Shown here piece after piece: positions 9,257 through 64,000 of a stretch of DNA of 64,000 nt. This stretch comes from Candidatus Heimdallarchaeota archaeon. GTDB taxonomy: Archaea; Asgardarchaeota; Heimdallarchaeia; Heimdallarchaeales; Heimdallarchaeaceae. The DNA lies in assembly GCA_019057815.1 (NCBI GenBank), contig JAHLWR010000016.1, positions 21,959-85,958 of the forward strand, written 5' to 3'. A program made the position numbers and the translations under genes. How positions within the stretch are numbered: the first letter of the stretch is position 1; the number at the start of each line of letters is the position of its first letter. The notes under the pieces were generated by a model, which saw only the letters and a program-made list of their open reading frames with translations, ran no database searches and had not been told where the DNA came from.

Positions 9257-9275
9257 AAAAAATAGTGATATTACT

Positions 9276-10611: not shown

Positions 10612-10613
10612 TG

Positions 10614-11528: not shown

Positions 11529-11672
11529 GTACTGGAACGTTACTTATACTAGAAGTTGAGAAATAAGAAAAAATCTCTTTGCACACAGAGAAGGAGAGAG
11601 AATATGCTTTTTTGAGCTAACCTCAAAGTTTTATATATATGGTTCTTCCTCAACTCAAAAAGTGAAATCAGT

Positions 11673-12575: not shown

Positions 12576-12585
12576 TTTTCCTTTT

Positions 12586-13908: not shown

Positions 13909-13953
13909 TATATATACTAGAAAGTGTTTATTATTTTAAGTATTAGTGTCTAA

Positions 13954-15054
13954 TCAAGCTAATAAGTAGAAATTATTATCCAAAAGTGATATAATATGAT
14001 CAAGTTGTTCTTGATTTGGCATAATATTGGGTTTGAGTTCCTCCAAATAATTATCCAATGCTTTTAAAACGTCTGAAGATGTCCTTTCTAATCTCTTGCT
14101 AGAAATCTTTGTTTGTAAAATCATAAAAACTTTTTCACCAGCATAGAAGTTCAAAGAAGATGAAGTCGTTTTAAGTTCTTTAAACTGCTCGTCTTTAGAA
14201 GAAGCAATATAATCATGTACAAAATGAAAAATCCCAGAAAGGTAACCAGAAGCAGCAATGATTTTTTCTTCATAGTCAATTTTTGTTCTTGCCAGAGGTG
14301 AATAACCAACAAGTGGATTACCTTCTTTATCTACAACTAATATAGTTTGAATTCCATGGGATATGGATTGAGCCAAGTAGAATGCAACTGTGATAAGTAC
14401 TGCAACAGTATATAAATTATCAATTAGTATAAAAGATAGAAGATAAGAATCAGTTAGTTCTTTTATCATCTCTCTTCGGACTATAACTAGCCCTCCGAAT
14501 CCAATCAACATTATAATTAACAGCAAAGTTATATTTCTTTTATTCTTCAGACGTTTATCGTTTGTTATTGATGCTGAACGTACATATCTAACAAAAAGAG
14601 GAGCTAATAAAAAAGCGCTAACTACAATAAAAAGACCATAAATCAAACCATAAATATCACTAGGAATGAAAGAATAAATTCTAATTGAAATATCCTTGTA
14701 TAATTGAATCATAGAATCTAAAGGTATGAGGATAAAATACACAGCTAGCATGTAAAGTGAAATAGCTAAAATCCTTGAAGCCTTAGATGAGAGAATCATT
14801 GCTTGTTCTAAACATGCAGCGAAAAGAAGAATAATTGCTAGTGCTTGCATTGCTTGAAGAGCTCTATATAGCCATAATTCATTGTATAAATATTCAAGCG
14901 CATCAAATAAATCAAAAACACCATAAACAAATAAAAAAGCTACCCAAAGACCATAAAAGGGACTCTGTCTCTTTCTACCAATAATTGCAATAATGAGCCC
15001 TCCTACCATTAAAGCAGCTGCAGAAGAACATTTCAGAATTATATAATTACTCAT
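13954..15054 (-). CDS. 7-TM membrane protein with C-terminal longin-like domain
   Basis: Seven hydrophobic helices, then IQTILVVDKEGNPL...SGYLSGIFHF...; ATG 15054 follows GGGGT (track start 15090). Confidence 0.65.
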   Translation of the reverse strand: MSNYIILKCSSAAALMVGGLIIAIIGRKRQSPFYGLWVAFLFVYGVFDLFDALEYLYNELWLYRALQAMQALAIILLFAACLEQAMILSSKASRILAISLYMLAVYFILIPLDSMIQLYKDISIRIYSFIPSDIYGLIYGLFIVVSAFLLAPLFVRYVRSASITNDKRLKNKRNITLLLIIMLIGFGGLVIVRREMIKELTDSYLLSFILIDNLYTVAVLITVAFYLAQSISHGIQTILVVDKEGNPLVGYSPLARTKIDYEEKIIAASGYLSGIFHFVHDYIASSKDEQFKELKTTSSSLNFYAGEKVFMILQTKISSKRLERTSSDVLKALDNYLEELKPNIMPNQEQLDHIISLLDNNFYLLA

Positions 15055-47553: not shown

Positions 47554-49158
47554 ATGGATAGAGAAAAGCAAATTAATATGTTATCTGAAGACGAGTTTGA
47601 TTTGCTAGTAATAGGAGGGGGAATAAATGGTGCTGGAATCGCAAGAGATGCTAGTTTACGAGGTTTGAAAGTAGCTCTAATTGATAAGGGTGACTTCTCT
47701 TCTGGAACTAGTTCAAAAAGCGCTAAACTTATACATGGTGGGCTTAGATACATAGAAAAATTTCAATTTAAAATGGTTTTTGAGAGTGTTAGGGAGAGAA
47801 ATCTTTTACTAAAATTGGCACCTCATCTGGTAAAACCTTTAGAATTTGTGGTTCCAATTTACAAAGAAGATCGTGTTCCTAAATGGTTTTTACTTCTAGG
47901 TCTTGTAGTATATGATATCTTCTCTGGTTTAAAAAAACCAAGACACAGAAGACTTAGTAAGAAGGGAATTGTAGAACTCTTTCCATGGTTGAAAGAAGAT
48001 GGTCTCAAGGGAGGAGGATTGTATACGGATGCAAGAGCTGATGATAGCCGTTTAACAATTGCCAACGTGCAATCTGCTTTTGAAAACAAAGCAATAGTTG
48101 CTAATTATGTCAAAGCGATAGACATAGAAAATTCAGAATCTATGAAATGTGTTTCCGTAAAAGATATGCTATCTAATCATGAATTCAAAATTAAATGTAA
48201 AATCGTCGTCGCTGTTATAGGTGTATGGCAAGATCAACTTTTTACTGCCCATAAAAAATTACCTAAGATTATCCCTTCAACAGGTAGTCATTTTGTAATA
48301 AAACAAGATCTTTGTAATGATAGAGCCTTGGGATTCATATATCAACAAGCCAAATCCACGGGATATATTATCCCTTGGAAAAAACATACTATAATAGGTA
48401 CAACAGATATTCCTTTCGAAGGTAACCTAGATAATATCCTTCCATGCCAAGAAGATTTAGATTTCCTTTTAAGTGAGGTTAATAGGATTATCAAAAGTGA
48501 AAATTCTATAACTGAATCAGATATTTTCAGCGCTTTTGCAGGAGCTAGACCTCTTTTTTACAGTAAAGCAGAAGTCACTGACATATCTAGAGAATTTAAA
48601 ATAGCTGAATTGGAAGATGGAATAATTGTAGTTACAGGCGGAAAGCTAACTACATATCGATTATTAGCAGAAAAAACAGTTGATAAAGTTTACAAAAATT
48701 TAAAAAGAAGAAAAGCAAAATGCTTAACTCATAAACTTACCCTACCCGGATCTGAAGTTGAGGATTACAGTTGTTTTTATTTAGAATATCATAAAAAACT
48801 AAGCGATATGGGTTTTAAGGATGAAACTGTCAATCATTTACTCAATACTTACGGAACGAGAGTTAAAAATATTCTAGAACTAATTAGAAAAGATGAATCC
48901 TTAAAAAGGAAAATTTCTGAAGCAAAACCACACATATATGCTGAAATTCCATATTTAGTGCAAAACGAGTATGTATGTAGAATCGAAGATGTATTTTTTG
49001 GAAGATTGCATTTGGATTTAACTCTTGACAATGGGTTTGATTGCATTAACGTGATTGCACATGAAGTAAAAGAAACTTATAATCTAAGCAATGTAGAAAT
49101 TGAAGACCAAATAAAAGAATACAGAAATTATATAAAATCAATAAGAGATTTTAAATGA
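47554..49158 (+). CDS. glpD: FAD-dependent glycerol-3-phosphate dehydrogenase
   Basis: GGGINGAGIARDA.LRG, SGTSSKSAKLIHGGLRY, GTTD, AGARPL, GGKLTTYR. Confidence 0.95.
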   Translation: MDREKQINMLSEDEFDLLVIGGGINGAGIARDASLRGLKVALIDKGDFSSGTSSKSAKLIHGGLRYIEKFQFKMVFESVRERNLLLKLAPHLVKPLEFVVPIYKEDRVPKWFLLLGLVVYDIFSGLKKPRHRRLSKKGIVELFPWLKEDGLKGGGLYTDARADDSRLTIANVQSAFENKAIVANYVKAIDIENSESMKCVSVKDMLSNHEFKIKCKIVVAVIGVWQDQLFTAHKKLPKIIPSTGSHFVIKQDLCNDRALGFIYQQAKSTGYIIPWKKHTIIGTTDIPFEGNLDNILPCQEDLDFLLSEVNRIIKSENSITESDIFSAFAGARPLFYSKAEVTDISREFKIAELEDGIIVVTGGKLTTYRLLAEKTVDKVYKNLKRRKAKCLTHKLTLPGSEVEDYSCFYLEYHKKLSDMGFKDETVNHLLNTYGTRVKNILELIRKDESLKRKISEAKPHIYAEIPYLVQNEYVCRIEDVFFGRLHLDLTLDNGFDCINVIAHEVKETYNLSNVEIEDQIKEYRNYIKSIRDFK

Positions 49159-49171
49159 GGTCAACAGATAG

Positions 49172-49219
49172 TTTTATAAGGAAATCTTTTTGTTGAAGAA
49201 AAAAAACGACTTAGTTTTG
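49172..49219 (+). repeat. Conserved ~48-bp island-border motif, copy B
   Basis: ttttataaggaaatctttttgttgaagaaaaaaaacgacttagttttg; inverted copy at 34206-34253. Confidence 0.75.
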
Positions 49220-49704
49220 GTTAATAGAAGAAAAGGATATAAAATATTGAGTAAAAAAGGTTGAAACGGGAATATTTTGAAAAAGATTTTGTCGAAGGAA
49301 AGATTAGACTGAATTGTAGAACTATTATAGTAGAAAAAAACTTCGAGGAAAAGATTTCATAACATTAAAAGATTAGTCTATCAGCAGTATCAACGAAGGT
49401 AATTATTCTAAAATAAATATTAAAAGTGTACCAACATTTTTTCTATTTAATGTTACTTCTCATCAAATTGGCAAGCATGTTGGAATTATGGTTTTTGAAG
49501 AGTTATTTACGTTTGTTAATTCGTCTTCTTACATGGGAAGTATTAAAAAATACATATAAGTTTCTTTAAGAATTTAATAACACAAGATTTATGTTTTTTT
49601 ACTTAAATATTTAAAAGTCATATGTTAAAGAAAAAACTGTTACCAAGGTGGGTTTAGTTAACAAGCAAGAAAAACTTGTAAAAAAGCTCTAATAATACCC
49701 TTTT

Positions 49705-50931
49705 CTACTCTAATTTTGGAAATTTAGCAAGTTTACGTAATTTGGTTAACTCCTCTTGTTCCTTTCCAGCTTCTTCAGCAAAAACTATAATTTTACGGTA
49801 TAGTTTGTCCACAAAATCTTTGTTAACAGGTTTAATGCCGTGAGCTAAGATCGAATCGTTTCTATAACTTAATAAATTCTTTAACTCTTTGTCTTTTCTG
49901 AACAAAAAACCTAGAGAATCCTTTAGATCACAAAGTAGGTCATAACTAGCATGCAAACCAATCTTTATTACTCGACTTCGAGTTTTATACTCCTCATATT
50001 GCGAGATAACAATAGGTTGTAAACCTAACTCTAATAACCTCTCAGTATCAATATTACTAGTATCTAGAAGATAAGAAGTTTTAAGGCGAAATTGTGCAAT
50101 AAGTTCAGCACACCTGTACAATCTTGCTGTAGCATCGTCATATTTCTCTTCTTCCACTCGACGTTCGGTATTATTTAATAAATCAGCAATAAGAAAATAC
50201 TCTTTAGAGACTTTCTTATCTCTTGAATCAGATAATAGTTTAGAGAGGAAAAGCTTATTCTCAGCATATTCTTTACTAATGTTCTTTAGTTCGAGAAAAG
50301 CTGATTCATGATGGAATTTATCCCAAAGACGGTAAGCATTAATTAGAGCAGTATAGGTCTCACGTATATCATCATCAAAAATAATTATTTCATCCAGACA
50401 GTTTTGTGCAGTACTAAATTGGTAATGATTAAATGAATCATGTAGTTTGGCTATAAGTATCTTATCATAAGCAGAATAAAGATTTTGTTCTATTATGTGT
50501 TCGGTCCCAGAAATGATAAGTCCATGCTCACCTCTTTTACCAGAGATCAGACTCAGCTTTTTGTGGAAAAGAACAGAACAAATTGCTGCACTCACAGTCA
50601 TTGTTTTAGTTCCAGAAGTGTAATCAATGATGATCTCAGTGTTAGGAAAACGTGTGAGAGAAGAGGAGATTAGACGAAAACATTCATCAAAACTGTCAAT
50701 TTGCTGGATAATTATAAATTCATAATGAGAAAATTCTTTCTTCATTGTCTCGAAATAAAGTTTCTTAACAACATCAACTGTAGAATAACTCTGGTCAGAA
50801 CCAAAAAAAATAACCTTATCTGGACGAAAATGTAAGATGCAAGATAATAAGCCATGAGCTAAACTGGAGATACGACCCTGTTGATTAGAACCCACACCAG
50901 TACCAACGGTCATGAAAAGGACTCTTTGCAA
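49705..50931 (-). CDS. csm6: CRISPR-associated CARF-HEPN ribonuclease, TIGR02710/Csm6-like
   Basis: TVG, DYTSGTKTM (CARF); YDDATARLYR..E; RNDSILAHG (HEPN). Confidence 0.88.
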   Translation of the reverse strand: MQRVLFMTVGTGVGSNQQGRISSLAHGLLSCILHFRPDKVIFFGSDQSYSTVDVVKKLYFETMKKEFSHYEFIIIQQIDSFDECFRLISSSLTRFPNTEIIIDYTSGTKTMTVSAAICSVLFHKKLSLISGKRGEHGLIISGTEHIIEQNLYSAYDKILIAKLHDSFNHYQFSTAQNCLDEIIIFDDDIRETYTALINAYRLWDKFHHESAFLELKNISKEYAENKLFLSKLLSDSRDKKVSKEYFLIADLLNNTERRVEEEKYDDATARLYRCAELIAQFRLKTSYLLDTSNIDTERLLELGLQPIVISQYEEYKTRSRVIKIGLHASYDLLCDLKDSLGFLFRKDKELKNLLSYRNDSILAHGIKPVNKDFVDKLYRKIIVFAEEAGKEQEELTKLRKLAKFPKLE

Positions 50932-51061
50932 AGAATAACCACCTATAAGTAAGTGGGTAACAATAAAACTATTTAAGGATTAAGAAATCGAAGAAAAAGA
51001 AAAAAAAGCAAATAAAAAATTAATAACTGAATTAAAGTAATTCAAGCGTAAATAAAAATCA

Positions 51062-51769
51062 ACAAATTCACTGATTATTAACAAAGCTAGTTTGTATCAG
51101 TTTAAAAATTTTTTTAACGAGGGGGAGCAAAAAAAGTTACCTCCTTCTCTTTAACGAAGCTAGTTTGCATCTTCTGACACTATCTGGTTTAACACTACTA
51201 ATAGTAAGTTACCACCTCCTCTTTTGACGGAGCTAGTTTGTAACAACTATTGAAACCTTTTACGACGGCGATTTTGCTAGGTTACCACCTCCTCTTTTGA
51301 CGGAGCTAGTTTGTAACATCCATCAAGAAGAACTCTCTTACACAACTATACAAAAGTTACCACCTCCTCTTTTGACGGAGCTAGTTTGTAACCAGTTAAT
51401 TATCATGGGAAAATTAAAAAGAATTAAGGTTACCACCTCCTCTTTTGACGGAGCTAGAATGTAACAACAACAAGGAGGTGAAAGGGCAAAATGAGATTTC
51501 GCGTTACCACCTCCTCTTTTGACGGAGCTAGAATGTAACGGAGAATCAAAAAAGGGCGATGTGTGACGCTCTTTGGTTACCACCTCCTCTTTTGACGGAG
51601 CTAGAATGTAACGAAAATTGTTCAGATAGAAGCCGAGATGGCTTTCAAGTTACCACCTCCTCTTTTGACGGAGCTAGAATGTAACCCCTTACCTTCCTTT
51701 CAAGGGAGGTAAGGAGAACAGTAAAAAGTCTCGTTACCACCTCCTCTTTTGACGGAGCTAGAATGTAAC
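51062..51769 (-). CRISPR. CRISPR array 1: 8 intact 37-bp repeats plus 2 degenerate trailer repeats
   Basis: GTTACCACCTCCTCTTTTGACGGAGCTAG(TT/AA)TGTAAC at 51208, 51281, 51356, 51429, 51503, 51576, 51649, 51733; degenerate at 51136 and ~51062; leader on the right. Confidence 0.97.
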
Positions 51770-51880
51770 CGCGGGGATTCTGGTTCTAGTAAACGTTTTA
51801 TCAGTTTTCACTTTCACCTCGTATACTAGTTGTAGCGTACGCTATTTTCTCTTTCTCCCTCATTCTTAAAGTTTTTGCTG
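51770..51880 (-). promoter_or_regulatory. Leader of CRISPR array 1
   Basis: Minus strand AAAACTTTAAG (BRE/TATA) about 100 nt from the repeat; ACTAGAA-N11-GCG junction shared with the array 2 leader. Confidence 0.75.
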
Positions 51881-51964
51881 TTTCTCGAGCTCTAGCATTT
51901 TTTCTCTTTTTACGTTACTTCGTTTAAGGCTCTAAGAAAACGTTTTTTATTGTTCATATTACTG

Positions 51965-54883
51965 TTATTCTATTCTGAATAATGGATAATATTTTCTGTC
52001 TTTATTGTGATATTCATATAGTTTTACTGCTCTTGCTGTATTCAATTCGTATCCTATCATAAAGCTTAGAAAAATTGGCATTGCTCCATAAAAAAGTATT
52101 TTATCTGTTCCTTTTTCTTGAGAATAATCTCTTATCTTTGTAGCTATTGATTTTGCCATTTGATTTGCTTTTTCATCTGTAAATATAATGTCTCTACTTA
52201 TCCCTTCCTTTGGATGTATATGTATCCTTTTCCTATAATTAATATTATTTGTGTCTATATAATCTGATACAGCTTCTCTTATTGACTGAGCGACACTAAC
52301 TTCTATTGTTGTAATTGTTCCTTTCTCTTCATCACCTGGGATTATGTCTTCTTTTAACAACTCTGGAGCTTCAGCTAACTCTTGTAATGTTCTGTATATG
52401 TTTTCATTGTGTAATATCTCTAAGTTATATCCAGTTGTGCTTCTAAATATGAAACCAAATGCTAAAGTTAATATAATATGAACTTTTGGGTTGATTATTC
52501 TTAATTTTCTTATATTAGATATCTTAGAAAGACTGTCTCTTACTCTTTTTATGCACTCATAAACAAGTTCACTTTTCTCTTTAATTATCATCTTATCAAC
52601 TTCTTCAACTGCACTTGTTAAATCAAAGGCAAAATCTGTATCATTATTGATTTTTTGATGCTCTTTTGAAAATAACTGAATGTTAAAATACTTATCTTCA
52701 CCTTTTCTTTCATCTATTTCTGAGATCATCTGTTCAAAAATTCTTTGCATAGTGTCGATATTATGCTTTTTTTTACTATCTTCATCTTTTTCAAAAGTAG
52801 CAAAGGGTTTTATTAATGTATCAAACTTTTCAACACTCCAATTTTTCACTCTTTCTTTATTTATTTTATATAATATTGGAAAAATCTTGAATTGTTCTTC
52901 ATTTTCTATTAATAGTGCTTCTTTTAGAATGTTTTCCACTAGTGATGATTCTAAACTTTTTGGTGTAAGAAGTATAATTGCTCCATCACATTTTTTCATT
53001 TGTTCAATTAATAAGTCGCTATTTTCATATTCTACTAGTTCATATTCTAAACAAACATTTATACCCATAAACCTTAAAATCTCAGCTAAATTCGTCATTA
53101 TTTCTTTATCTTCGTAAATGAAGCAGCAAAAAATTGAAGGAGTTCCCATTTTCTCAATAACTTTACTTTCTTTCACTTTTTCAAGTTGAGTCTTACTTGT
53201 TTCTCTCATTATGATTTCAAATTGTTGAGATTTTATCCCTTCAGTAGGTATTAATTGAAATTCTGTAGTATTATTTGGTCTTGTTTTTGTAGATATTTTA
53301 GCGTAGTAAGTTATATTTGCTAAATTTTGTTCTCCTATGCTAGTAATTACTTTAAATAGCTTCTTTTCGTTTGGTTTTAAGATAAAATTGCTTGGTTCAA
53401 TATCTTTTATCGTAATTGCTTCTTTTGGTAATTCATTTTCAAAATTTTGATCTTGAGCAAGTTCCATTTGAAGGTGAGTGGATATTAACTCTCCTTCGCT
53501 ATCACCTATGTTTTGAATAGTCAAATGCCATTCGTGGTCAGTTTCTATTTGACCATCATTAGATATATCTACAATTAATAAATTTTTGCACTCTTCTTTA
53601 AGAATCATTGGTGTAAAACCTTTTTTTAGTTTTACTGAGACTTTTTTAGCAAAATTATATTTTCTTGATTCAACAACATCCCTTTGTACTATGTTAACAG
53701 CTAGTTCTATTTGTAAAGAGTCACTTTCAATAATAGAAGGATTAAGGGGTTTAAGAGTAAATAATCGTTCTAGGATATCTTGAGTAAAATAAAAATCACT
53801 AGAGAGATAATGTGGTTGATAAATTTTTTCTGGTTTTTCAAGTGAAGTAACATTATCTATCTGCAAAACTATTTTATTTATCTCTTCAGGTAATGGAATA
53901 AAACTTAATGAACATTGAATACTTTGATCTCTAAAGTCATCAATTGTAATAGTAACAAAATCAGCAATGCGATCAAGGAAATAATCAATATCAACTTCAA
54001 AAGGTAGTGACGAAGTGAGAAATTTAGTTACTACTTCATCTATTTCTTTTTCTAATTTACCGTTTCTTATACGAAGATCCATCTCTGTTTTGATATTTTT
54101 TGCTAAGACTTTTTCTATTTGACGACACATCATTTCTTGAAGGGTTTTGTTTTTCAACCAACTGGTAATATCCTTGTAAACTCCAACAGCTACATATTTG
54201 TCTTGGATAGTAGTGTAAAGTGCAAAATAATCAGCATTTTCAAAAATAAAAAATTCAGGAGCAGTATTGAACAGTTCAAGAGATACGTTCCGAATAGCTG
54301 AAAAAATACCTGCTATATTTGAATCATCTGCTGATAAATCTCCTTCCTCTTTCTTAACTCTAAAATCTGAATACTCTGGGAGTATACTAATAATAGGAAC
54401 TCCTTCGTGATATTCAAAAACAATAAACCATTGTAAACTTTTACCATAAGGAGTTTTAGGTTGTTTAAATGTTTTGGTATCCTTTACTGCTTCACTGAGC
54501 AAATCATCTGTACATTTCTTAGCTATCTGTTTAATGCGTTCATTAAGGAACATTTCAAATTGCGGGAAATGTTTATTTAATAATTGATTAAAATCAATCT
54601 CTCCTCTTCCAAAACTTTTGATATTTTCCTGGATAGTCTCTATTCTTTCATTAAGATTACTTTGCAATTCTTTAAGTTCTGGAATGATTTCTACTTGTTT
54701 TTCTGTTTGTTCTATGAAATTATTGAATTTTGCTATCTCTGAATTAAGACATTCATTTACTTCTTCAAGAGCAGTAATTTTGTCACGATTACGATAAACT
54801 TGACTAGATAATTGATTTAAAGCTTTAAGTATTTGATTTATAGTATAGTAAGCTTCTTTTATTTTGGGAAACCAAGAACTCAT
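51965..54883 (-). CDS. Multidomain TIR-SAVED effector with N-terminal coiled coil, longin-like and Ig-like domains
   Basis: TIR: IFCCF..ED...CDGAIILLTPKSLES; SAVED: ILFYGAMPIFLSFMIGYELN...LYEY...YYP; longin-like: WFIV..HEGVP...IAGIFSAI. Confidence 0.8.
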   Translation of the reverse strand: MSSWFPKIKEAYYTINQILKALNQLSSQVYRNRDKITALEEVNECLNSEIAKFNNFIEQTEKQVEIIPELKELQSNLNERIETIQENIKSFGRGEIDFNQLLNKHFPQFEMFLNERIKQIAKKCTDDLLSEAVKDTKTFKQPKTPYGKSLQWFIVFEYHEGVPIISILPEYSDFRVKKEEGDLSADDSNIAGIFSAIRNVSLELFNTAPEFFIFENADYFALYTTIQDKYVAVGVYKDITSWLKNKTLQEMMCRQIEKVLAKNIKTEMDLRIRNGKLEKEIDEVVTKFLTSSLPFEVDIDYFLDRIADFVTITIDDFRDQSIQCSLSFIPLPEEINKIVLQIDNVTSLEKPEKIYQPHYLSSDFYFTQDILERLFTLKPLNPSIIESDSLQIELAVNIVQRDVVESRKYNFAKKVSVKLKKGFTPMILKEECKNLLIVDISNDGQIETDHEWHLTIQNIGDSEGELISTHLQMELAQDQNFENELPKEAITIKDIEPSNFILKPNEKKLFKVITSIGEQNLANITYYAKISTKTRPNNTTEFQLIPTEGIKSQQFEIIMRETSKTQLEKVKESKVIEKMGTPSIFCCFIYEDKEIMTNLAEILRFMGINVCLEYELVEYENSDLLIEQMKKCDGAIILLTPKSLESSLVENILKEALLIENEEQFKIFPILYKINKERVKNWSVEKFDTLIKPFATFEKDEDSKKKHNIDTMQRIFEQMISEIDERKGEDKYFNIQLFSKEHQKINNDTDFAFDLTSAVEEVDKMIIKEKSELVYECIKRVRDSLSKISNIRKLRIINPKVHIILTLAFGFIFRSTTGYNLEILHNENIYRTLQELAEAPELLKEDIIPGDEEKGTITTIEVSVAQSIREAVSDYIDTNNINYRKRIHIHPKEGISRDIIFTDEKANQMAKSIATKIRDYSQEKGTDKILFYGAMPIFLSFMIGYELNTARAVKLYEYHNKDRKYYPLFRIE

Positions 54884-55326
54884 ATGATTTATGATTTCAC
54901 TTTAACATTTAAAAATATAGCTTTTTTTGTTGTATTTTTAAGAAAAAATAAATTCCTTTAGAAGAAGGACTGAAAACTATTTTGGATTAGTATATAAACT
55001 ACAATACATCAAGAAGGTTTGTGATCTTTTTTCCTTTAAGTATAAACATTACAAAACGAGAAAGAGGTTCTTTTCTTAAAAAGTGTTGATGTTACCTTGT
55101 TTATATAACAAAAAAGAGTAGATGTCCTACTAACTGATTGATACAACATATAGATTAGTGAATAGATAAAATAGTGAATAGATTTCTGATTATTTTGAGT
55201 GTCTTATATAGATTTTTGAAGCTAGAAAAATCAAAAAGGTACACTAGTATTATTTATATACAGTTTTTACTTAGTTACTATATCACATATGAAGTAGTTT
55301 TATTCATAACAAGTAAGGATCAAATA

Positions 55327-56538
55327 ATGGCTAGAATATTATTTATGACAGTTGGAACTGGTATTGGTGTAAACAAAGAGGAAAAGATCAAAAGTCTTGC
55401 TCATGGATTATTGGTCTGTATTGAACACCATCGTCCAGATAATGTAGTTTTTTTTGGTTCTGATCAAAGCATGGATACAATCGAATCTGTTAAAGAACAA
55501 TATTATGAGCGACATCAAGAAGAATTTACTGATTATGAATTTGTAGAAATAAAAAACGTTGATAACTTTGACGATTGTTTTTATATTTTGACTAAAAAAC
55601 TAGAAGAATATCAGCAAGAAGAAGTAATTATTGATTACACTTCTGGAACTAAAACTATGACTATAAGTGCTGCTATTGGTTCTATTCTTTATCATAGAAC
55701 ACTAAGTTCGATTTTGGGCAAGAGAGGAGAGAAAGGAATAGTTATCCCGAATACAGAAAAGATTACTGAACAGAACCTTTATTCATTCTATGATAAGCTG
55801 ATACTAAAAAAAGTTAAAGAGTTATTCAACAATTATAGGTTTGGCGCTGCTGAAAAAGTTCTTGAGGAAATAGTGATACAAGAAACAGAACAACAAGAGA
55901 ACTATAAAGCTTTGATTAAAGCTTATGATTTATGGGATAAATTCCGTCATCAAGAAGCTTTTACAGAATTAAAAAAAGTAACTAAAATATATGGAGAAAA
56001 TAAAGCTTTTCTAGGAAAATTACTTCAAACATCAGAAGAAAAAAGAGAGTTGTACTATATTGCAGATCTTCTAAACAACACAGAAAGAAGAATAGAGGAA
56101 GAAAAATATGACGATGCAACTGCAAGATCATACAGAGTAATAGAGCTAATTGCTCAATACAGATTAAGAGATAAGTATCAATTGATCTCAAGTGATATTA
56201 AGATTAAAAGACTAAAAGAATTAGGGTTAAAAAACCAAGATATAGAACAATATAAAAGTCCAGAGGGTGCTAATAAGAAAATAAGTTTACAGGATAACTA
56301 TAAACTTCTAAAAGCCCTGAAAGATGAACTGGGGGAGATGTCTATTAAGGATAAGGAAATGAAAAATCTCTTGCAAATAAGAAATAACTCAATATTAGCA
56401 CATGGATTACAACCAGTAGGAAAAGATGATGCAATCGATTTTTTTAATACAGCGAAACTCTATGCAGAGGAAGTAAGTACGGAAAAAGTAGATTTAGAAG
56501 AACTACGGAAAATAGCTCTCTTTCCAAAATTAGAATAA
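55327..56538 (+). CDS. csm6: CRISPR-associated CARF-HEPN ribonuclease, TIGR02710/Csm6-like (paralogue 2)
   Basis: MARILFMTVGTG aligns with the paralogue start; DYTSGTKTM; RNNSILAHG; start reassigned from 55174. Confidence 0.88.
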   Translation: MARILFMTVGTGIGVNKEEKIKSLAHGLLVCIEHHRPDNVVFFGSDQSMDTIESVKEQYYERHQEEFTDYEFVEIKNVDNFDDCFYILTKKLEEYQQEEVIIDYTSGTKTMTISAAIGSILYHRTLSSILGKRGEKGIVIPNTEKITEQNLYSFYDKLILKKVKELFNNYRFGAAEKVLEEIVIQETEQQENYKALIKAYDLWDKFRHQEAFTELKKVTKIYGENKAFLGKLLQTSEEKRELYYIADLLNNTERRIEEEKYDDATARSYRVIELIAQYRLRDKYQLISSDIKIKRLKELGLKNQDIEQYKSPEGANKKISLQDNYKLLKALKDELGEMSIKDKEMKNLLQIRNNSILAHGLQPVGKDDAIDFFNTAKLYAEEVSTEKVDLEELRKIALFPKLE

Positions 56539-56685
56539 TAAAATATCTATAAGATATAGCGTGTTATAACTGTGACTTTCCAGTTTTCCTTTTAGTTTTT
56601 TAGTGTTTTTGGTAGCTTAACTGGAAACCTTTTACGAAGAGGGATAGAGGGTTACATACTTCATCACTGTCTGACTTTCACGCTC

Positions 56686-57081
56686 CTATGTTGTTATGAA
56701 GGAACGAGATACAAAGTCTGTCCTCCACCCATTCAAGATACGGACCTGAGCAAGAACGAGTTTTCCCCAGTTGGTGAATCCTATCGCAGCATAGCGACTA
56801 TCCTTTGTTCGTGCTTCCCAGTCTTTTACCGTACCCATACGCTTATCGACTCTAAAAGTTCCTTTGATAATGCTTCGAACCCCAAGTGTCTTGAGGTATT
56901 GTTTAGGTGTTTGATAGTACTGTTCGATACACTTGTTTTGTAACGCATGTCCTACTTCTGTCACTCTCCCTTTCTTGTAGAGGAACTGTAGAATAAACTC
57001 GTCAGTACACCCTGGGTCATCGAATGGCTTGAAAGCGGAGTCTCTCCAATATTTTTGGTACAGTCGTCTTACCATGGGCAT
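56686..57081 (-). pseudogene. C-terminal fragment of an IS4/IS5-like DDE transposase
   Basis: Y...LGVRSIIKGTF..DKR resembles Y-x-R-x2-IE-x2-F-x3-K with the catalytic E lost; higher GC than the flanks. Confidence 0.55.
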
Positions 57082-57337
57082 GTGATTAACAATGAACTCA
57101 ACTAGTAAACCAATACCTATACAATAAATTTAAGGAGAGAATGTTAGATTGAATGAAAAACAAATTCAAAAAACAATGAAAATAAGAACCAAATAATCAG
57201 AGTAATATCCGAATAAATTGAATCTTGAATATATTTAAAAATAAAGTAAAATCGGGCTAAACCTTTTCATTGAAACTGAAATATGCACAGTTCAAAACAG
57301 AGTAATCATTGTCAAGTTTAAAAATTAAAAATATATA

Positions 57338-58135
57338 TTAAGCAATTTCGAATTTGCCAAAACCATAAGAAGTTTTGCTACCAATTTGATAGAATTTAGC
57401 AAGAGACAAAAGCTTACCAATTTCATCATTCATTTTTTTGAGTTTGTAAGTGATTTCGCCAAAAATACCTTCTAATTTTATAGGTTTACCTTTACGTCTA
57501 TGTTGATTCCAAGAGAACAAACGAAGATCATAATTTTCAACAGTAACAGGAATATTTCTCCAGCTGCGATCCCAATGAATAGGGTAGCAACTAAGAAGAT
57601 GGAATTTGTTAAAACGATTGACACTTCGAACCAATGAATCGAGAAGAAGGGAAAAATCAACAAAAAGACAAGGCTTACCAGAACGATAGAAAGAAGTAGG
57701 AGAAATAAGACGGATACGGAGAAAAGGAGAAGGGGAAAGAGGGGAGAAAAAATCATTACGAATTTGAACATGAGAAAGAGAAGCATCTTTACCTGCAATA
57801 TGGAGATGCTTTATGCCAGAAAGAACATGAACAAATTCAGAAACAAGGTCCTCAAAAGAATCTAAAAAGAGAAAATGGGCGAAAATGCCAGAAGAATTAT
57901 GAGTAGTATAGAAAAAATAAGGACGAAAAGGAATAAGAGAATCACAAAAAACAGAGTGAAGAGAAGGGGAATCAAATAAATGAGAACCGAACCAACCACG
58001 AAGAACAGGACCATAATAAGGTAAATGAGAGAAAGAAGGAAAATCAATGAAAAAAGAAACATGAATGACTGAATGAGAAAGAAGCGATGAAAGAGAAGGA
58101 GAAAAAAACGAAGAAGAGGAAGAAGAAGGAGACAT
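57338..58135 (-). CDS. cas6: CRISPR endoribonuclease Cas6
   Basis: G..LRG.FG, RPY, SPT, GIFGEITY, C-terminal Gly loop IGSKTSYGFG; start reassigned to ATG 58135. Confidence 0.9.
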   Translation of the reverse strand: MSPSSSSSSFFSPSLSSLLSHSVIHVSFFIDFPSFSHLPYYGPVLRGWFGSHLFDSPSLHSVFCDSLIPFRPYFFYTTHNSSGIFAHFLFLDSFEDLVSEFVHVLSGIKHLHIAGKDASLSHVQIRNDFFSPLSPSPFLRIRLISPTSFYRSGKPCLFVDFSLLLDSLVRSVNRFNKFHLLSCYPIHWDRSWRNIPVTVENYDLRLFSWNQHRRKGKPIKLEGIFGEITYKLKKMNDEIGKLLSLAKFYQIGSKTSYGFGKFEIA

Positions 58136-58189
58136 AAAATGGAAAAAGAAAAGAAATATATCAAGTTTTAGATAAGCAAAGAGAAGAAA

Positions 58190-58293
58190 AAAAGAAAAGG
58201 TTAATAAAGAAAAAAAAGAAGAAGAAAGAAGAAAAAAAAAAGATAAGAAAAAGAGAAATGGAAAAAACAAGGACTAGAAGGAATTTCGTTGCG
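58190..58293 (+). promoter_or_regulatory. Leader of CRISPR array 2 (divergent from cas6)
   Basis: AAAAGGTTAATAAA about 93 nt upstream; ACTAGAA-N11-GCG immediately before the first repeat. Confidence 0.7.
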
Positions 58294-58476
58294 GTTACAA
58301 ACTAGCTTCGTCAAAAGAGAAGGTGGTAACGAAAAGTTTCTTTCCTGAGGGGATTGCAAAGGGCATGTTACAAACTAGCTTCGTCAAAAGAGAAGGTGGT
58401 AACATCCTTTGATTATGTTGTTCAAGTTTGGCTAAGTATGTTACAAACTAGCTTCGTCAAAAGAGAAGGTGGTAAC
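58294..58476 (+). CRISPR. CRISPR mini-array 2: 3 repeats, 2 spacers, opposite orientation to arrays 1 and 3
   Basis: GTTACAAACTAGCTTCGTCAAAAGAGAAGGTGGTAAC at 58294, 58367, 58440; 36-nt spacers. Confidence 0.95.
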
Positions 58477-58549
58477 CAATACGATTGATCAAGGAATCAG
58501 AATTATATAACAAAAACGATTTTTATGTGCAAATTCTTAGGTTAAAGCT

Positions 58550-59045
58550 GTAATATTGCTACCAGCGTCTCATTTTCTTTTAGACTTTTGAAAGAATATT
58601 CTATCAGGATCTATCATGCAGGTTCTTCTTCACCCATTCCCCAAGAGAGATTCTAATCTTCTTTCTTGGGCTTGAAAGTAATCAAGTGTAAAAGCAAGAA
58701 GGAAATATCCTTCATTTGGGAGAAACCAAGGTTCTTTTACTGTTTCTTTATATATTCCTCGTTGTTTAGTTTTTAGTAGTTGAAGAAAGACTTGTAAGCT
58801 TGTTCTGTTTTTCGTGTTGCTTGTTGTGCAACTTGTGCTGGAAGTCTTTGATAATACTCATTTGTTTTAATTGTTGGGTATGCTTTGTTGTATGTGAAAA
58901 AAGTCCTTGTTGACTCCCATTCCTTTTTCATTAACCATAATGTGAGGTAATAAACATCTTTTGACCATCGTGTAAGTTGTTTGAGTATCCAGTACGTTTC
59001 TTTGTTTAATGATCTTAAATGGTTTTATTATACTAAAAATATCAT
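58550..59045 (-). pseudogene. tnpB: Degenerate N-terminal part of a tnpB
   Basis: Hand translation NHLRSLNKETYWILKQLTRWSKDVY...NEYYQRLPAQVAQQ...YKSFF with stops and frameshifts; upstream ttcctatttaaac matches the promoter region of tnpB 15182-16435. Confidence 0.8.
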
Positions 59046-59188
59046 TTCTTCATCTTTACTTTCCTATTTAAACCCCAGTAAGACAATCAACTGAATGTAT
59101 TAGTACTCGAAAAAGTTCATTATTGTACAAAAAAACAAAACCTATAGTAAATTTAATAAATTATATATAAATAATACTAAGATAAATC

Positions 59189-62100
59189 ATGTACAGTAAA
59201 TTAAAAGAACAAGAAGTGGCATTACTTAAGACATTGATACAAGACAATAGTGAGAATTTAGACTACAATATTATAAATATTCCACGATCTACTGAATTTT
59301 TCATTAATCTTGAAATTGAATCAGATAAATGGAATTTAACACACATTAGTATTGTCACTAGAGCAGACCATCATAGTGAAATTATATTATTGCTAGCTTT
59401 TAATTTAGATGCAAGACGTTTAGTGTTATGTCTCTTAGATGATAATTATGAGATTAATATATACACACAGACTGATGATTCACAAATAATTTACATGAAA
59501 AGTCCTAATTTACTTGATGGTATTGTTATCAGTGATATAGAAACCGTTATAGTAAGTATTTTGTTGGACTCTATGCAGAAAGAACAAAAGAAATTTAGAG
59601 AGTTTTTTACATACTTTCAAAAAAATAATAACCTTCCTCCCATACGTTTCAACTTACTTAAAGAACTACTCCTAAATAAAAGGAGAACATTATTCTTACT
59701 ACATAACGCTTCTTGTACTATAGAACAGCTAATAACTTCACATAGGAATGCAAAGGGAAATTTATTTAGCTTACATTCCTTAAATACTAAAAGTGTCAAA
59801 ACTGATTATAGCATCTCTAGTTATTTGTATAGTTTCAACTTTAGTAATCTCACTGTAGGTTTCTACTTTTCTTTATCTTCAATAGAAATAGGAAAATACA
59901 AATTTTGCTCTATAAAAATAAGTCCAGCAAAGAGAGGAAGTTCTACTCTCACTTATACTTGTGACTTAACAACTTTAACTAATGTTTTTCAAGAAAAATC
60001 AACAACTCTATTTGATTTAAGTGCAAATACTAATTATCCTAAAATAGACAATAAAGATGATAAAAAAGCAGTAGCCATAATTTGCGATTTTCCTAACCCC
60101 ATAATTGTCAAATCAATTCCAGAAAAAGAATTGAATGCTATTATTGATTCATTTTCTATTATTGCAATTTATGCAAAACTTTCCAACAGATTGAATTTAG
60201 CTAAACTAGAGAATTTGTTAGGATTGAAAATAGAAAAAACTAATATCCCTTTTTGTACTAAAATACGTTCAGCTGCAACAATCAGTAAACATATCCTTAG
60301 AAATTATTTAGTCCAAAAACTTAATCTAGATTTATATATAATTCAAAAAAACATTAAAAAATCACACAATTTCCTACAAAACTACAAACAGACTTACTTA
60401 GGTGGAAAAGTTGAGTGCTTTATTCACGGACTAGTCGAAACTACACTTGAACAAAAAATCTATTATTTAGATTTTACTGCTCTTTATCCTCATGCAGCTT
60501 GGATTTGTGAAGCACTATGGCTTTATCTTGTTTGTTCAAAGAATGAAATACAAAAATACATTAGAAAAGATATTAGCAATGTTATAAAACGTATTAAATT
60601 GAGTGTTAATGAAATTATTGAGAGTATAATAAAAAAGAAACCTTTACAAAAAAGAATCTTTCAAGGATTGGTAGGAAATTGCACTATTCACAGTGACATA
60701 CTCCTACAATTACCTAGAGACTTTAAGAATAAGAAAGTTGATTTGTTAGTTAAAGGACAAATATCAACTACACTCGTTGATCTCTCTCTAGCTATTGTAA
60801 GGGAAATTATAATTCATAAAAGACAAATAGATGAAATCTTTAGTCAAATTTCTTTTATAAAAGCAGAATATATCGATTTTCCTGTTTCATCTGAATATGG
60901 CAAAGAATTTTTTTCAATTCTCTGTTTATTTCGTAAAGATATCAAAGCAGAAATAAGAGAAATAAAAGAAAACCTCAAAAAAGGGAATAGCGCTAAAATT
61001 ACTATTTTAGAGTGTGAGCAATTATTTGTAAAAATTTTGATGAATGCTTGTTGTGGAATAAGTGGAGAAGGGATGTTAAATGAAAAATATACAGGAATTT
61101 TCTGTAATCCAATAGTGGCAAATGCAATATCAACCATTGGTCGCGCTTTTATTACTGTTGCTGAAATAACGGTTGATCACATTAACGCGTTAAAAATATA
61201 TACAGATACAGACAGTATCTTTGTTCGAGCTACAAAGACACAGCAAGAATATTTGTTATCTGTTTTTCAAGAAACTATTTTACTGAAAGACGAAATAGAA
61301 GAGAAATATAAGGATGGAGATTATATTACTCACATTTACATAGCAGGTAAGAAGAAATATGGCTACAAGACAAGTAAAGGTAGAATAGTATTCACTACTC
61401 ATAGTAAGGGGCAGTACTTGACAGAACCCTTCAAGAAAGCTCTTAAAGAATCCTATAAATACCTTTTTACGCCTACCTTCACAGAAGATACAACAGATAA
61501 AGCAGGTGAGATAGCATCACAATATCATAGTTATTTACAGAATGTTACTCTAAGCAGTCAGAAAAGCAGTATCTATACGGGTTTAAGAAAATTCAATAAA
61601 AGAACAATTACTTCTTATACTTGGCAATGGGAAGGAATAACCATCTATGTTAAATTTAATCTTCCGAATGGAAGTTACCTTGTAACTAATACTAGACAAA
61701 TCACAAAAGGATTAACTGGGGAATATTTGAATATTACAAAAGGAAAGAACAAATTGATCTTTTTCATTACCATATCAATAGATGTTGATAAACTAATTAG
61801 TGATTTTATAAAAAAATTTGATACAACAAATGAGGATATATTATTTAAGAAACAAAAAACCACCAACTCGTTACAAGGGTTTTATGGTTCTAATAATACT
61901 TATTATCTACAATATCTCTTGAATGATTATATCAGTTTTGAACGAAAAAAAATTGTTAAATATTACAAAAATTATTGGCTAGATGTTTATTATGACTGTA
62001 AGATAAATAATAAAGAACCTTTAGGAAAGAAAGAATTACTCTTATGGGAACAAATAACAAATTATAATAATTTAGAAGAAATAAAGAAACAAGCAGCTTT

Positions 62101-62506
62101 ACTGTTACATTCTTGGTATTTCCAGGAGTCAAATCAATTGAGTTTTGAAAAATCAGTAAAAGAGATTAAAGATTTAGATTTAAACTTTCTTAACCATCCA
62201 ACTTATCAGCTCTATCAAAACATTCTCTCAGAAGTATGTAAGGGGGTAACTATTACTAAGATCATACAAAACTCTATTAGTAAAATAGTAGCAGGATTTC
62301 AAACACTTGATGTTCTTATTGACCAATTAGTTACTAAAATAGAGAATAAGGAACACATTAAAAGAAGGATGCAAAATTACTTTCAGTACAACGAGCACAA
62401 AATTACTCGAGATATAGCTGAATATAAAGAAACCTTCATAATTACAAAACCTCAAGATGACAAAGTTAATGATGAAGAAATCCAAAACATTAAAGAAAAA
62501 TCATAA
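59189..62506 (+). CDS. polB: Family B DNA polymerase, protein-primed/casposon-like, degenerate exonuclease
   Basis: YLGGKVE, motif A DFTALYP (aa 428), motif B KILMNACCG (aa 615), motif C YTDTDS (aa 671), KKY. Confidence 0.85.
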   Translation: MYSKLKEQEVALLKTLIQDNSENLDYNIINIPRSTEFFINLEIESDKWNLTHISIVTRADHHSEIILLLAFNLDARRLVLCLLDDNYEINIYTQTDDSQIIYMKSPNLLDGIVISDIETVIVSILLDSMQKEQKKFREFFTYFQKNNNLPPIRFNLLKELLLNKRRTLFLLHNASCTIEQLITSHRNAKGNLFSLHSLNTKSVKTDYSISSYLYSFNFSNLTVGFYFSLSSIEIGKYKFCSIKISPAKRGSSTLTYTCDLTTLTNVFQEKSTTLFDLSANTNYPKIDNKDDKKAVAIICDFPNPIIVKSIPEKELNAIIDSFSIIAIYAKLSNRLNLAKLENLLGLKIEKTNIPFCTKIRSAATISKHILRNYLVQKLNLDLYIIQKNIKKSHNFLQNYKQTYLGGKVECFIHGLVETTLEQKIYYLDFTALYPHAAWICEALWLYLVCSKNEIQKYIRKDISNVIKRIKLSVNEIIESIIKKKPLQKRIFQGLVGNCTIHSDILLQLPRDFKNKKVDLLVKGQISTTLVDLSLAIVREIIIHKRQIDEIFSQISFIKAEYIDFPVSSEYGKEFFSILCLFRKDIKAEIREIKENLKKGNSAKITILECEQLFVKILMNACCGISGEGMLNEKYTGIFCNPIVANAISTIGRAFITVAEITVDHINALKIYTDTDSIFVRATKTQQEYLLSVFQETILLKDEIEEKYKDGDYITHIYIAGKKKYGYKTSKGRIVFTTHSKGQYLTEPFKKALKESYKYLFTPTFTEDTTDKAGEIASQYHSYLQNVTLSSQKSSIYTGLRKFNKRTITSYTWQWEGITIYVKFNLPNGSYLVTNTRQITKGLTGEYLNITKGKNKLIFFITISIDVDKLISDFIKKFDTTNEDILFKKQKTTNSLQGFYGSNNTYYLQYLLNDYISFERKKIVKYYKNYWLDVYYDCKINNKEPLGKKELLLWEQITNYNNLEEIKKQAALLLHSWYFQESNQLSFEKSVKEIKDLDLNFLNHPTYQLYQNILSEVCKGVTITKIIQNSISKIVAGFQTLDVLIDQLVTKIENKEHIKRRMQNYFQYNEHKITRDIAEYKETFIITKPQDDKVNDEEIQNIKEKS

Positions 62507-62615
62507 TTTAATGAAAAAAGTATAGTGTGATCATGAAAACGACTAGATCCTATTTTATAAAAAACTATACAATTTGCACATTTCAAAGAGTTATGATTAA
62601 ATTTGTCAATTATCA

Positions 62616-64000
62616 GTTATCTCCTCTTCTTCTACTATAGTTAGAGAATAGTTATGGGATAGAAGGAGAATGAATCCGAAGTGTTATCATAAGTTATTAT
62701 CTCCTCTTCTTATTGAGCTAAAATGTAACTAGAGCTGATTCTGTCTATTTAACTCAAAATGTCTATACGTTACCACCTCCTCTTTTGACGGAGCTAGAAT
62801 GTAACCCTCTCTCAGCCACCCTCCCAAGAAGAAATTTTGGGTTACCACCTCCTCTTTTGACGGAGCTAGAATGTAACTTCTACTAGTTTTTACGAAGCTG
62901 CAAGGATAGAGTAGTTACCACCTCCTCTTTTGACGGAGCTAGAATGTAACTTATCAGGAGAACTGGCTGATAATCACAGAAACCCGTTACCACCTCCTCT
63001 TTTGACGGAGCTAGAATGTAACCTTCTCAAGCAGAAGCCAATCAATAATGACCTGCGCGTTACCACCTCCTCTTTTGACGGAGCTAGAATGTAACGCTTA
63101 AGTGGCTTCCCAAGAACTGATTTATAATCTTGTTACCACCTCCTCTTTTGACGGAGCTAGAATGTAACAAAATCAGAAAAGAAGTACAACACTGTCATGG
63201 AAGTAGTTACCACCTCCTCTTTTGACGGAGCTAGAATGTAACGACTCAAGAACGTCTTCGTTACGGAGCACTTTGTAGGTTACCACCTCCTCTTTTGACG
63301 GAGCTAGAATGTAACTTAATAAGGTGAGTTTTACAAAAACTGAATAATGAAGTTACCACCTCCTCTTTTGACGGAGCTAGAATGTAACGCCCTTGACATA
63401 TTCTTAAACAAATTGGTTACTTTAAGGTTACCACCTCCTCTTTTGACGGAGCTAGAATGTAACGCCCTTGACATATTCTTAAACAAATTGGTTACTTTAA
63501 GGTTACCACCTCCTCTTTTGACGGAGCTAGAATGTAACGTCTTTAATGTGCGGAGGATTGTGGACTGCAAGTTTTTGTTACCACCTCCTCTTTTGACGGA
63601 GCTAGAATGTAACGTGAATATCCTAACTTCTGCTCAATTAATTCTCCCCGTTACCACCTCCTCTTTTGACGGAGCTAGAATGTAACCTGATCAGTTGGGG
63701 TATAAAAGGTGGGCTCCAGATGTAGTTACCACCTCCTCTTTTGACGGAGCTAGAATGTAACGATTGCTTCTTGAAAAGGCCCGCAGAGTTTATCCTCAGT
63801 TACCACCTCCTCTTTTGACGGAGCTAGAATGTAACGTTTGGAGAAAAGTATAGTAAGTTAAGCGGAGAAAGATGTTACCACCTCCTCTTTTGACGGAGCT
63901 AGAATGTAACGGCACGTTCGGTAGAATGACCGCTGGTTTATTAGAAGTTACCACCTCCTCTTTTGACGGAGCTAGAATGTAACGTTTGGAGAAAAGTATA
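62616..64000 (-). CRISPR. CRISPR array 3: 17 identical repeats plus 2 degenerate trailer repeats; continues past the window end
   Basis: GTTACCACCTCCTCTTTTGACGGAGCTAGAATGTAAC from 62769 to 63983, spacers 35-39 nt; degenerate copies at 62693 and ~62616. Confidence 0.98.

Follow-up and report, generated by a model that had tools for sequence, protein, structure and literature searches.

A CRISPR array and effector region at the end of a contig

The window analysed is a stretch of 64,000 nucleotides at the end of contig C46 of a Candidatus Heimdallarchaeota genome; coordinates below are those of the window unless a contig is named. Its positions 49705-64000 hold three CRISPR arrays sharing one 37-nt repeat, a cas6 gene, two csm6 genes, a TIR-SAVED gene, a gene for a divergent family-B DNA polymerase (polB) and fragments of insertion sequences (IS). 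An earlier reading of the sequence by itself (the sequence-only reading) had listed these same elements, and every one of them is real.

Array 1 (~51062-51769) consists of ten 37-nt units, of which eight are good and the two leftmost, at the trailer end, are decayed, and is followed by a leader-like flank (51770-51964) that is nearly identical to the flank between array and cas2 on a second contig, C20 (C20:279-462). Array 2 (58294-58476) has three repeats of an older variant and points the opposite way from arrays 1 and 3. Array 3 (62693-64000) begins with a decayed trailer repeat beside polB, counts 18 units up to position 63983 and runs off the contig. In a search across the genome's contigs, the repeat was found in identical form on C46 and C20 only. 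When 48 spacers, taken from C46, C20 and the related metagenome-assembled genome (MAG) 8H_bin2, were compared with the genome, the sole matches were duplicated spacers inside the arrays themselves. An Rfam search of window positions 49000-64000 gave no matches.

The two csm6 genes (49705-50931, minus strand, and 55174-56538, plus strand) encode CARF-6H-HEPN ribonucleases of the TIGR02710 family, with scores (197.8 and 208.4 bits, respectively) well above the curated cut-off of 83.9. Both carry an RNxSILAH motif of the Rx4-6H type (RNDSILAH at residue 357 and RNNSILAH at residue 403, respectively), and the paralogs are about 66% identical to each other at the nucleotide level. The TIR-SAVED gene (51965-54883, minus strand) encodes a protein of 972 aa in which a coiled coil (residues 1-100) and a region without family match (~100-580) precede the TIR (~584-680) and SAVED (~740-971) domains. 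SAVED scored 79.9 bits (cut-off 26.2), while the TIR_2 match, at 24.5 bits, fell under its cut-off of 28. The PADLOC model SAVED5--SAVED_TIR covers both domains (E=1.6e-27, residues 581-970, model positions 11-389 of 404), and among solved structures the sole TIR match to the TIR region was a weak one, 7uxr (E=0.13). By analogy, we predict that the protein is probably an NAD+ hydrolase. Its N-terminal extension of ~580 aa was found in the window's genus only, in a word-based search.

The cas6 gene (57338-58270, minus strand) was assigned by family profile matches. Translation probably begins at the ATG at 58132, which would yield a protein of 264 aa like that of the relative; the sequence upstream is of low complexity. 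Two pieces of IS debris lie nearby. The first (56573-57071) shares 92% identity with C20:9932-10430, a segment weakly matching DDE transposases, and includes a 131-aa ORF (56686-57081) with no match to any family, PHROGs included. The second (58641-59101, minus strand) corresponds to the N-terminal part of an IS200/IS605-type TnpB, an assignment made by eye from the minus-strand translation; it has no intact ORF and shows ~72% nucleotide identity to copies on contigs C1, C12 and C43.

The polymerase gene is probably a fragment of a rare replicase

The polB gene (59189-62506, plus strand) encodes a truncated family-B DNA polymerase of 1105 aa, recognized by its PolB motifs, its profile links to canonical PolBs and its fold. 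It differs from known family-B polymerases in escaping all Pfam, NCBIfam and PHROG models (PF00136, PF03175 and PF03104 included). The weak profile matches of its family are nevertheless PF00136/PF03175 proteins, and one distant member has a precomputed PF00136 match. PDB sequence searches with the protein and its profile returned noise only (PolB 5mdn at E=1.7). As in the family-B polymerases of mobile elements and viruses (PF00136/PF03175), motifs A (DxxxLYP), B (KxxxN...G), C (YTDTDS) and KxY are kept, with the tyrosine of motif B replaced by cysteine. In an alignment of 38 sequences that included canonical PolBs, D428, Y433, K615 and G623 were invariant, and N619, D673, T674, D675, K722 and Y724 nearly so. 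The structure model (pLDDT 89.8) has a palm-fingers-thumb fold, and all its top Foldseek matches were PolBs, among them the KOD, 9°N, Tgo, Pol alpha and ASFV polymerases (probability 1.0); a whole-length AlphaFold model made from six sequences (mean pLDDT 35) was set aside.

Relatives of this protein are scarce: five were found among 5.8 billion clusters, four of them of ~1700 aa. The full-length relatives (~1600-2000 aa) have extra N- and C-terminal regions, both of which are absent from the window copy, which aligns to residues ~105-1202 of the ~1700-aa proteins. They also have ExoI, ExoII and ExoIII motifs, reading DTE, NASYD and Yx3D, where the window copy has VTR, NASCT and Nx3D. By this comparison, ExoI and ExoII are without their catalytic residues in the window PolB, which is proofreading-dead.

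These relatives, and more distant ones, lie on ORFan-rich contigs with HNH, topoisomerase-like, methylase, PD-(D/E)xK and MazG-like genes, and no cas genes or arrays were seen in their neighbourhoods. The family occurs in 4 of the 83 genomes of the class and is CRISPR-adjacent in the window's genus only; no relative was found on IMG/VR viral contigs. A PolB gene near CRISPR-related sequence recalls the casposons, but the cas1 near the window belongs to an ordinary cas1-cas2 pair beside a leader, and no cas1 lies beside any full-length relative, so we rejected this reading. The contig of one relative (L009, ~20 kb) was checked for terminal inverted repeats and had none. We take the window PolB to be an internal fragment of a replicase from a rare group of mobile elements or viruses, and not a part of the CRISPR machinery. 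The fragment would have landed in the array region and been cut at both ends, with the TnpB fragment on one side and the trailer of array 3 on the other; it would have lost its proofreading site, and would now lie on a segment flanked by inverted arrays and able to flip.

Is the fragment merely decaying? Compared with an intact, 93%-identical copy (L013), the window polB has a dN/dS of ~0.3, with 69 of the 136 differences at third codon positions, and a neutral simulation predicted 8.2 stop codons where there are none (P=0.0002). In two strains, all 1105 codons of the ORF remain uninterrupted. Some function of the fragment is thus likely in two of the three strains, since dN/dS and the stop-codon simulation indicate purifying selection and not free drift, and the simulation weakens the idea of a pure pseudogene.

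This raises the question of whether the truncated, exonuclease-dead PolB has been domesticated, that is, retained by selection, on a segment that can flip between two inverted arrays, because it serves the CRISPR locus or host defence, for example as a decoy or dominant-negative inhibitor of the related mobile element's replicase that poisons replication of that element, or as a polymerase filling gaps at spacer integration. The intact ORF and its substitution pattern would fit such a role, as would the retention of the polymerase residues D428, Y433, K615, N619, D673 and D675 together with KxY, and the same position of polB between arrays in three strains. On the other hand, this is a single evolutionary event limited to one genus, and a dN/dS of 0.3 is not distinctive, because cas genes at the same shallow divergence range from 0.13 to 0.58. 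In 8H_bin2, moreover, polB is broken three times (by an IS insertion of 1089 bp and by two small indels, 2 bp deleted and 1 bp inserted), whereas the effector-complex and accessory cas genes there are intact. The 48 spacers gave no credible match to the PolB-bearing loci that were fetched, and relatives elsewhere have no CRISPR nearby. We therefore consider domestication unlikely, and retain the replicase fragment as our reading of polB.

The remainder of a type III locus probably lies on C20

The sequence-only reading had proposed a candidate new system, having seen no cas10, cas7 or cas1 within 14 kb. This is literally true, but only because the last base of the window is also the last base of C46, inside array 3; the absence of these genes is an artefact of the assembly. 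The second contig that carries the repeat, C20 (13.2 kb), has in order a leader, cas2, cas1, three Cas7-like RAMP genes, a gene for Cas11/Csm2, a 145-aa ORF, a Csx10-like cas5, cas10, an IS fragment, a second cas6 and array 4, and we infer that the locus would continue past array 3 in this same order. Cas10 (C20:6413-8845, minus strand; PF22335 57 bits, PADLOC Cas10 E=1.5e-41) has both its HD (residue 108) and GGDD (residue 579) motifs intact. The four RAMP proteins measure 183, 343, 269 and 438 aa, one of them scoring above the Csx7 cut-off (112 vs. 108 bits), and Csm2/Cas11 has 179 aa (E=7.5e-37). The cas2 gene (C20:463-741) adjoins the array leader, and with cas1 (C20:719-1738) forms a pair beside the flank that C20 shares with array 1. 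The subtype appears to be III-D-like, a call that leans on matches of Cas5 to TIGR02674 Csx10 (E=1.1e-7) and PADLOC Cas5_IIId (E=2e-9), both well under their curated cut-offs.

The proposed join between the two contigs is based on a 55-nt graph overlap and on the gene order of a relative. Nucleotides 1-55 of C20 are identical to C46 85887-85941 (window 63929-63983), the last 55-mer but one of array 3 being the link, and 55-mer loops terminate both contigs, consistent with a k=55 assembly graph. In the relative, Ca. Heimdallarchaeota 8H_bin2, a single contig (BPTO01000026.1) holds the run of genes from cas10 to cas2, followed by polB between two arrays, then cas6, csm6 and TIR-SAVED, and finally a further array and a second csm6; nucleotide identity is 93-99%.

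Could C20 instead lie elsewhere on the chromosome, or come from a co-binned strain, leaving the window as a separate island of arrays and effectors that depends in trans on the same type III complex? The overlap is only 55 nt, and past it C46 runs on into a repeated spacer, an alternative continuation that may stem from a loop, a tandem duplication or heterogeneity in the population. In addition, the polB segment of 8H_bin2 is inverted relative to the joined C46-C20 model, and its orientation may be wrong in one of the two assemblies. However, the 18-nt spacer tail inside the overlap occurs nowhere in the genome beyond C46 and C20, no third contig carries the repeat, the leader flank is duplicated between the two contigs and the same genes are contiguous in 8H_bin2. 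A separate island thus seems quite improbable.

More improbable still is a derived system in which the CARF and SAVED sensors act without a local Cas10, with another signal source, or in which PolB replaces part of adaptation: its one support, the absence of cas10, cas7 and cas1 within 14 kb of the window, was caused by the contig end, a Cas10 with GGDD and a cas1-cas2 pair adjoin array 3, the genes are contiguous in 8H_bin2, and a search of the 95.4%-complete genome for a CD-NTase (SMODS, PF18144) found none. This last result also led us to reject a CBASS reading, in which a CD-NTase is paired with the SAVED effector.

Of the two options left by the sequence-only reading, the first, an effector-rich satellite accompanying a type III operon that lies past array 3, thus held up, by virtue of the 55-nt overlap with C20 and the contiguity in the related MAG, while the second, a derived system whose source of signal or mode of adaptation is atypical, did not, given the GGDD of Cas10, the cas1-cas2 pair beside a leader and the PolB relatives that are never CRISPR-adjacent elsewhere. 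Of the genes it had suggested looking for beyond the window, cas10 and cas1 turned up on C20 and a CD-NTase did not. Its implied guess of an Asgard source was right. The neighbourhood of polB, cas6 and CARF/SAVED genes recurs within the window's genus, in 8H_bin2, while PolB relatives elsewhere come without CRISPR. In essence, then, a standard type III operon adjoins array 3 and polB does not accompany CRISPR elsewhere, the two observations that the same reading had named as counting against a new system.

The best explanation, and very probably the correct one, is that positions 49705-64000 hold the arrays and accessory genes of a single conventional type III CRISPR-Cas locus with cyclic oligoadenylate (cOA) signalling, cut by the assembler inside array 3, with PolB standing outside the machinery as an internal fragment of a mobile-element or virus replicase.

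Comparison with known loci and proposed mode of action

The locus resembles type III-D/III-A loci with cOA effectors in its Cas10 with HD and GGDD motifs, its several Csm3/Cas7-like RAMPs, Cas11/Csm2, Csx10-like Cas5 and Cas6, its cas1-cas2 pair adjoining a leader, and its Csm6 CARF-HEPN and TIR-SAVED genes encoded beside the arrays. TIR-SAVED has been described as a type III effector (bioRxiv 10.1101/2022.05.04.490601; reviewed in PMC9704534 and PMC11229360). Unlike such loci, this one is split up by its four arrays, by IS fragments and by a piece of a foreign polymerase, has two csm6 paralogs and two cas6 genes, and encodes a TIR-SAVED with the ~580-aa N-terminal extension.

From what is known of these families, Cas6 would cut the array transcripts into crRNAs, with which the Cas10-RAMP complex would bind any foreign transcript that matches. 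Cas10 would then use its GGDD palm to make cyclic oligoadenylates, and these would activate both Csm6 CARF-HEPN ribonucleases and the TIR-SAVED protein encoded in the window. New spacers would be added at the leader ends by Cas1-Cas2.

A practical caution follows from the way the locus was split: short-read assemblies fall apart at CRISPR arrays, and an "orphan" effector island at the end of a contig should be compared with any small contigs that share its repeat before it is put forward as a new system. With two Csm6 proteins and a long variant of TIR-SAVED, all three predicted to respond to cOA, the locus adds an Asgard case to the type III systems that carry such effectors. The ~1700-aa PolBs form a very divergent family that Pfam models miss and that marks a group of elements, not described before, from Asgard-rich sediments. 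One copy of this polymerase, truncated and proofreading-dead, appears to be under selection in its host.

The CRISPR locus probably continues on a second contig

The window is C46:21959-85958 of the source genome, and C46 is 85,958 bp long; the end of the window is therefore the end of the contig, and it falls inside array 3. In a genome-wide scan, the CRISPR repeat was found only on C46 and on C20, a contig of 13.2 kb that carries it at both ends. The first 55 nt of C20 (18 nt of spacer and one whole repeat) are those of C46 85887-85941, and the 18-nt spacer tail is unique, within the genome, to these two places. Each contig terminates in 55-mers looping onto themselves, which is the behaviour of a k=55 assembly graph at a repeat. 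Beyond the overlap, C20 carries, in order, four further repeats with a leader-like flank, cas2, cas1, RAMP genes (438 and 269 aa), Csm2/Cas11 (E=7.5e-37), a 145-aa ORF without family match, a Csx10/Cas5_IIId-like protein (343 aa), a further RAMP (183 aa), Cas10 (810 aa; HD at residue 108, GGDD at residue 579), and an IS fragment, a second cas6 and a fourth array. The lack of Cas10, Cas7 and Cas1, which the sequence-only reading took as a hint of a new system, is thus only apparent.

A relative, Ca. Heimdallarchaeota archaeon 8H_bin2, in which PolB was located by a pattern scan of species genomes, carries genes of C20 and of the window together on one contig (BPTO01000026.1), in the order cas10, the same RAMP and Cas11 genes, cas1, cas2, array, polB, array, cas6, csm6, TIR-SAVED, array and csm6; at the nucleotide level it is 93-99% identical to the window and to C20. 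This synteny and the C20 overlap place a standard type III operon, with a cas10 bearing GGDD and a cas1, next to array 3, just where the earlier reading had proposed to look. The sole part of 8H_bin2 flipped relative to the joined C46 and C20 is the TnpB fragment and polB segment between two inverted arrays (window 58294-63983; 8997-14862 of the 8H_bin2 locus, L016), either by true inversion through recombination between these arrays or by the assembler's choice. The 8H_bin2 cas1 (L016:7539-8555) falls into two ORFs, one of 202 aa and one of 90 aa; that of C20 is intact (339 aa).

The genome, which is 95% complete, yielded no CD-NTase. A second SAVED-domain protein (C33:33591-34118; 575-aa frame) is encoded far away from any cyclase. 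Two additional cas1 loci (C18:27277-28152 and C36:6072-6894), of which one is interrupted by stop codons, show that this genome contains further CRISPR modules.

Arrays, effectors and insertion sequences of the window

A repeat search showed that a single 37-nt repeat (GTTACCACC...GAATGTAAC) is common to the three arrays of the window. Array 1 (about 51062-51769) has 8 good units and 2 decayed ones at its left end; array 2 (58294-58476) has 3 units of an older repeat variant, in the orientation opposite to the others; and array 3 (62693-63983) has 18 units, with a decayed unit adjoining polB, and reaches the window's last bases. The right flank of array 1 is nearly identical to the C20 flank between array and cas2, and arrays 3 and 4 have similar trailer flanks. 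By this likeness of flanks, the arrays of C46 and C20 are duplicated modules of a single locus. The polB-adjacent trailer spacer is common to the window's genome and 8H_bin2 and the remaining spacers differ, hence the array leaders lie away from polB; the comparison suggests that spacers turned over after the two genomes diverged.

At 63352-63501 a spacer is duplicated in tandem, two neighbouring repeat-spacer units matching at 100% identity, and the spacer order A-B-A at 63799-64000, the contig end, is an assembly-graph loop. The left boundary of the CRISPR locus holds, directly after glpD, an element of ~60-200 bp (49139-49342), of which there are copies with 78-91% identity on no fewer than six further contigs (C7, C8, C24, C30, C36, C44) and one more in the window. 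Just upstream of glpD, 44620-47328 encodes a 902-aa protein; it has a PCI domain, which is a signature of eukaryote type, and also a weak CofD-like region.

HMM scans assigned both csm6 genes (49705-50931, minus strand; 55174-56538, plus strand) to TIGR02710, with scores of 198 and 208 bits (cut-off 84), and both proteins keep the HEPN motif RNxSILAH. In the 972-aa TIR-SAVED protein (51965-54883, minus strand), the SAVED domain scores above its cut-off and TIR_2 slightly below (24.5 bits against 28), and the PADLOC SAVED_TIR model is matched full-length over residues 581-970 (E=1.6e-27). Csm6 and TIR-SAVED are known type III effectors (10.1101/2022.05.04.490601, PMC9704534, PMC11229360). Residues 1-580 of the TIR-SAVED protein form a coiled coil followed by a stretch without family match; a word-based search found this ~580-aa extension in a single 95%-identical cluster only, and the TIR activity is putative.

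The same scans identified cas6 (57338-58270, minus strand). As called, its ORF is 310 aa and starts inside a purine-rich low-complexity tract (58133-58270), giving a Phe/Ser/Leu-rich N-terminus; in 8H_bin2 it is 264 aa, from the ATG equivalent to window 58132. Even from that ATG, the first ~20 residues are Ser-rich, unlike the C20 paralog. There are two IS remnants: 58641-59101 reads on the minus strand like a TnpB N-terminus, by eye only, with ~72% nucleotide identity to repeated copies on C1, C12 and C43; 56573-57071, including a 131-aa ORF, is a 92% copy of a C20 stretch with a weak DDE transposase match. Thus, with the polymerase described below, every element named by the sequence-only reading (arrays, cas6, two CARF-HEPN genes, TIR-SAVED, PolB and IS debris) is present; the candidate new system it proposed at 49705-64000 is not borne out by the C20 operon and the contiguity of 8H_bin2.

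The polymerase is a fragment of a rare, divergent family

The product of polB (59189-62506, plus strand) has no match to curated models, and a search of 5.8 billion clusters returned five relatives only. One (L013) has the same length of 1105 aa and 93% identity; its 4.4-kb contig ends on both sides in the same repeats, so it is the same locus from another strain. The remaining four, of about 1700 aa each, align with the window protein over their residues ~105-1202, and the homology ends no more than a few codons away from the start and the stop of the window gene. When 1.84 billion representatives were searched with a profile, 28 clusters came out at E<1e-10, mostly of 1600-2000 aa; the weaker tail matches at profile positions 570-760, its scanned members being mostly canonical PF00136/PF03175 polymerases.

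The columns that are invariant or almost so in an alignment of 38 sequences coincide exactly with motif A (D428, Y433), motif B (K615, N619, G623), motif C (D673-T-D675) and KxY (K722, Y724). The core folded with this alignment at pLDDT 89.8, and its top Foldseek matches are all family-B polymerases (probability 1.0). By these motifs, fold and matches, the protein is a family-B DNA polymerase. Compared with full-length relatives, the window copy has VTR for DTE in ExoI, NASCT for NASYD in ExoII, Nx3D for Yx3D in ExoIII and NACCG for NSxYG in motif B. The Exo changes indicate that proofreading would be lost, the polymerase carboxylates being retained.

The full-length members have extra N-terminal (~100 aa) and C-terminal (~490 aa) regions without known function. 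The loci L008-L012, L014, L015 and L029-L032 encode rare, very divergent family-B polymerases of ~1600-2000 aa, mostly missed by curated models; their contigs, rich in ORFans and as long as 54 kb, also encode a topoisomerase-like protein of ~600 aa and HNH, methylase, PD-(D/E)xK and MazG-like proteins. This divergent family probably marks an undescribed virus or mobile-element group of Asgard-rich sediments.

The polymerase fragment and CRISPR

The association of PolB with CRISPR is essentially confined to this locus. None of the 16 loci with full-length or distant PolB relatives has arrays, and those with called genes have no cas families; besides many small ORFs without family match, they carry HNH, topoisomerase-like, methylase, PD-(D/E)xK, MazG-like and RNase T genes, a content that looks like a virus or other mobile element. 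The family occurs in 4 of the 83 species genomes of the class, CRISPR-adjacent only in the window's genus. Moreover, polB of 8H_bin2 is disrupted by an inserted IS of 1089 bp (DDE_Tnp_1) and by two small indels, a loss of 2 bp and a gain of 1 bp; the cas genes of the effector complex and the accessory ones are intact in this genome.

Free drift of the fragment does not appear to account for the window and L013 copies, where dN/dS is about 0.3 and third codon positions hold 69 of the 136 differences; the same substitutions placed at random gave a mean of 8.2 stop codons, and only 0.02% of trials were free of them. Synonymous and non-synonymous codon changes number 29 and 29 in the window lineage, 19 and 37 in that of L013, and 12 and 34 in the broken copy of 8H_bin2. 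Cas genes at equal shallow divergence have dN/dS of 0.13-0.58, so the signal of selection on polB is modest. It is possible that the fragment has kept a function; a role in defence or CRISPR seems to us improbable. Globally, this is no new system but a type III (III-D-like) locus of the ordinary cOA-signalling sort, with effectors of known kinds, which the assembly cut in two at a CRISPR array; the polymerase fragment is probably its captured cargo.
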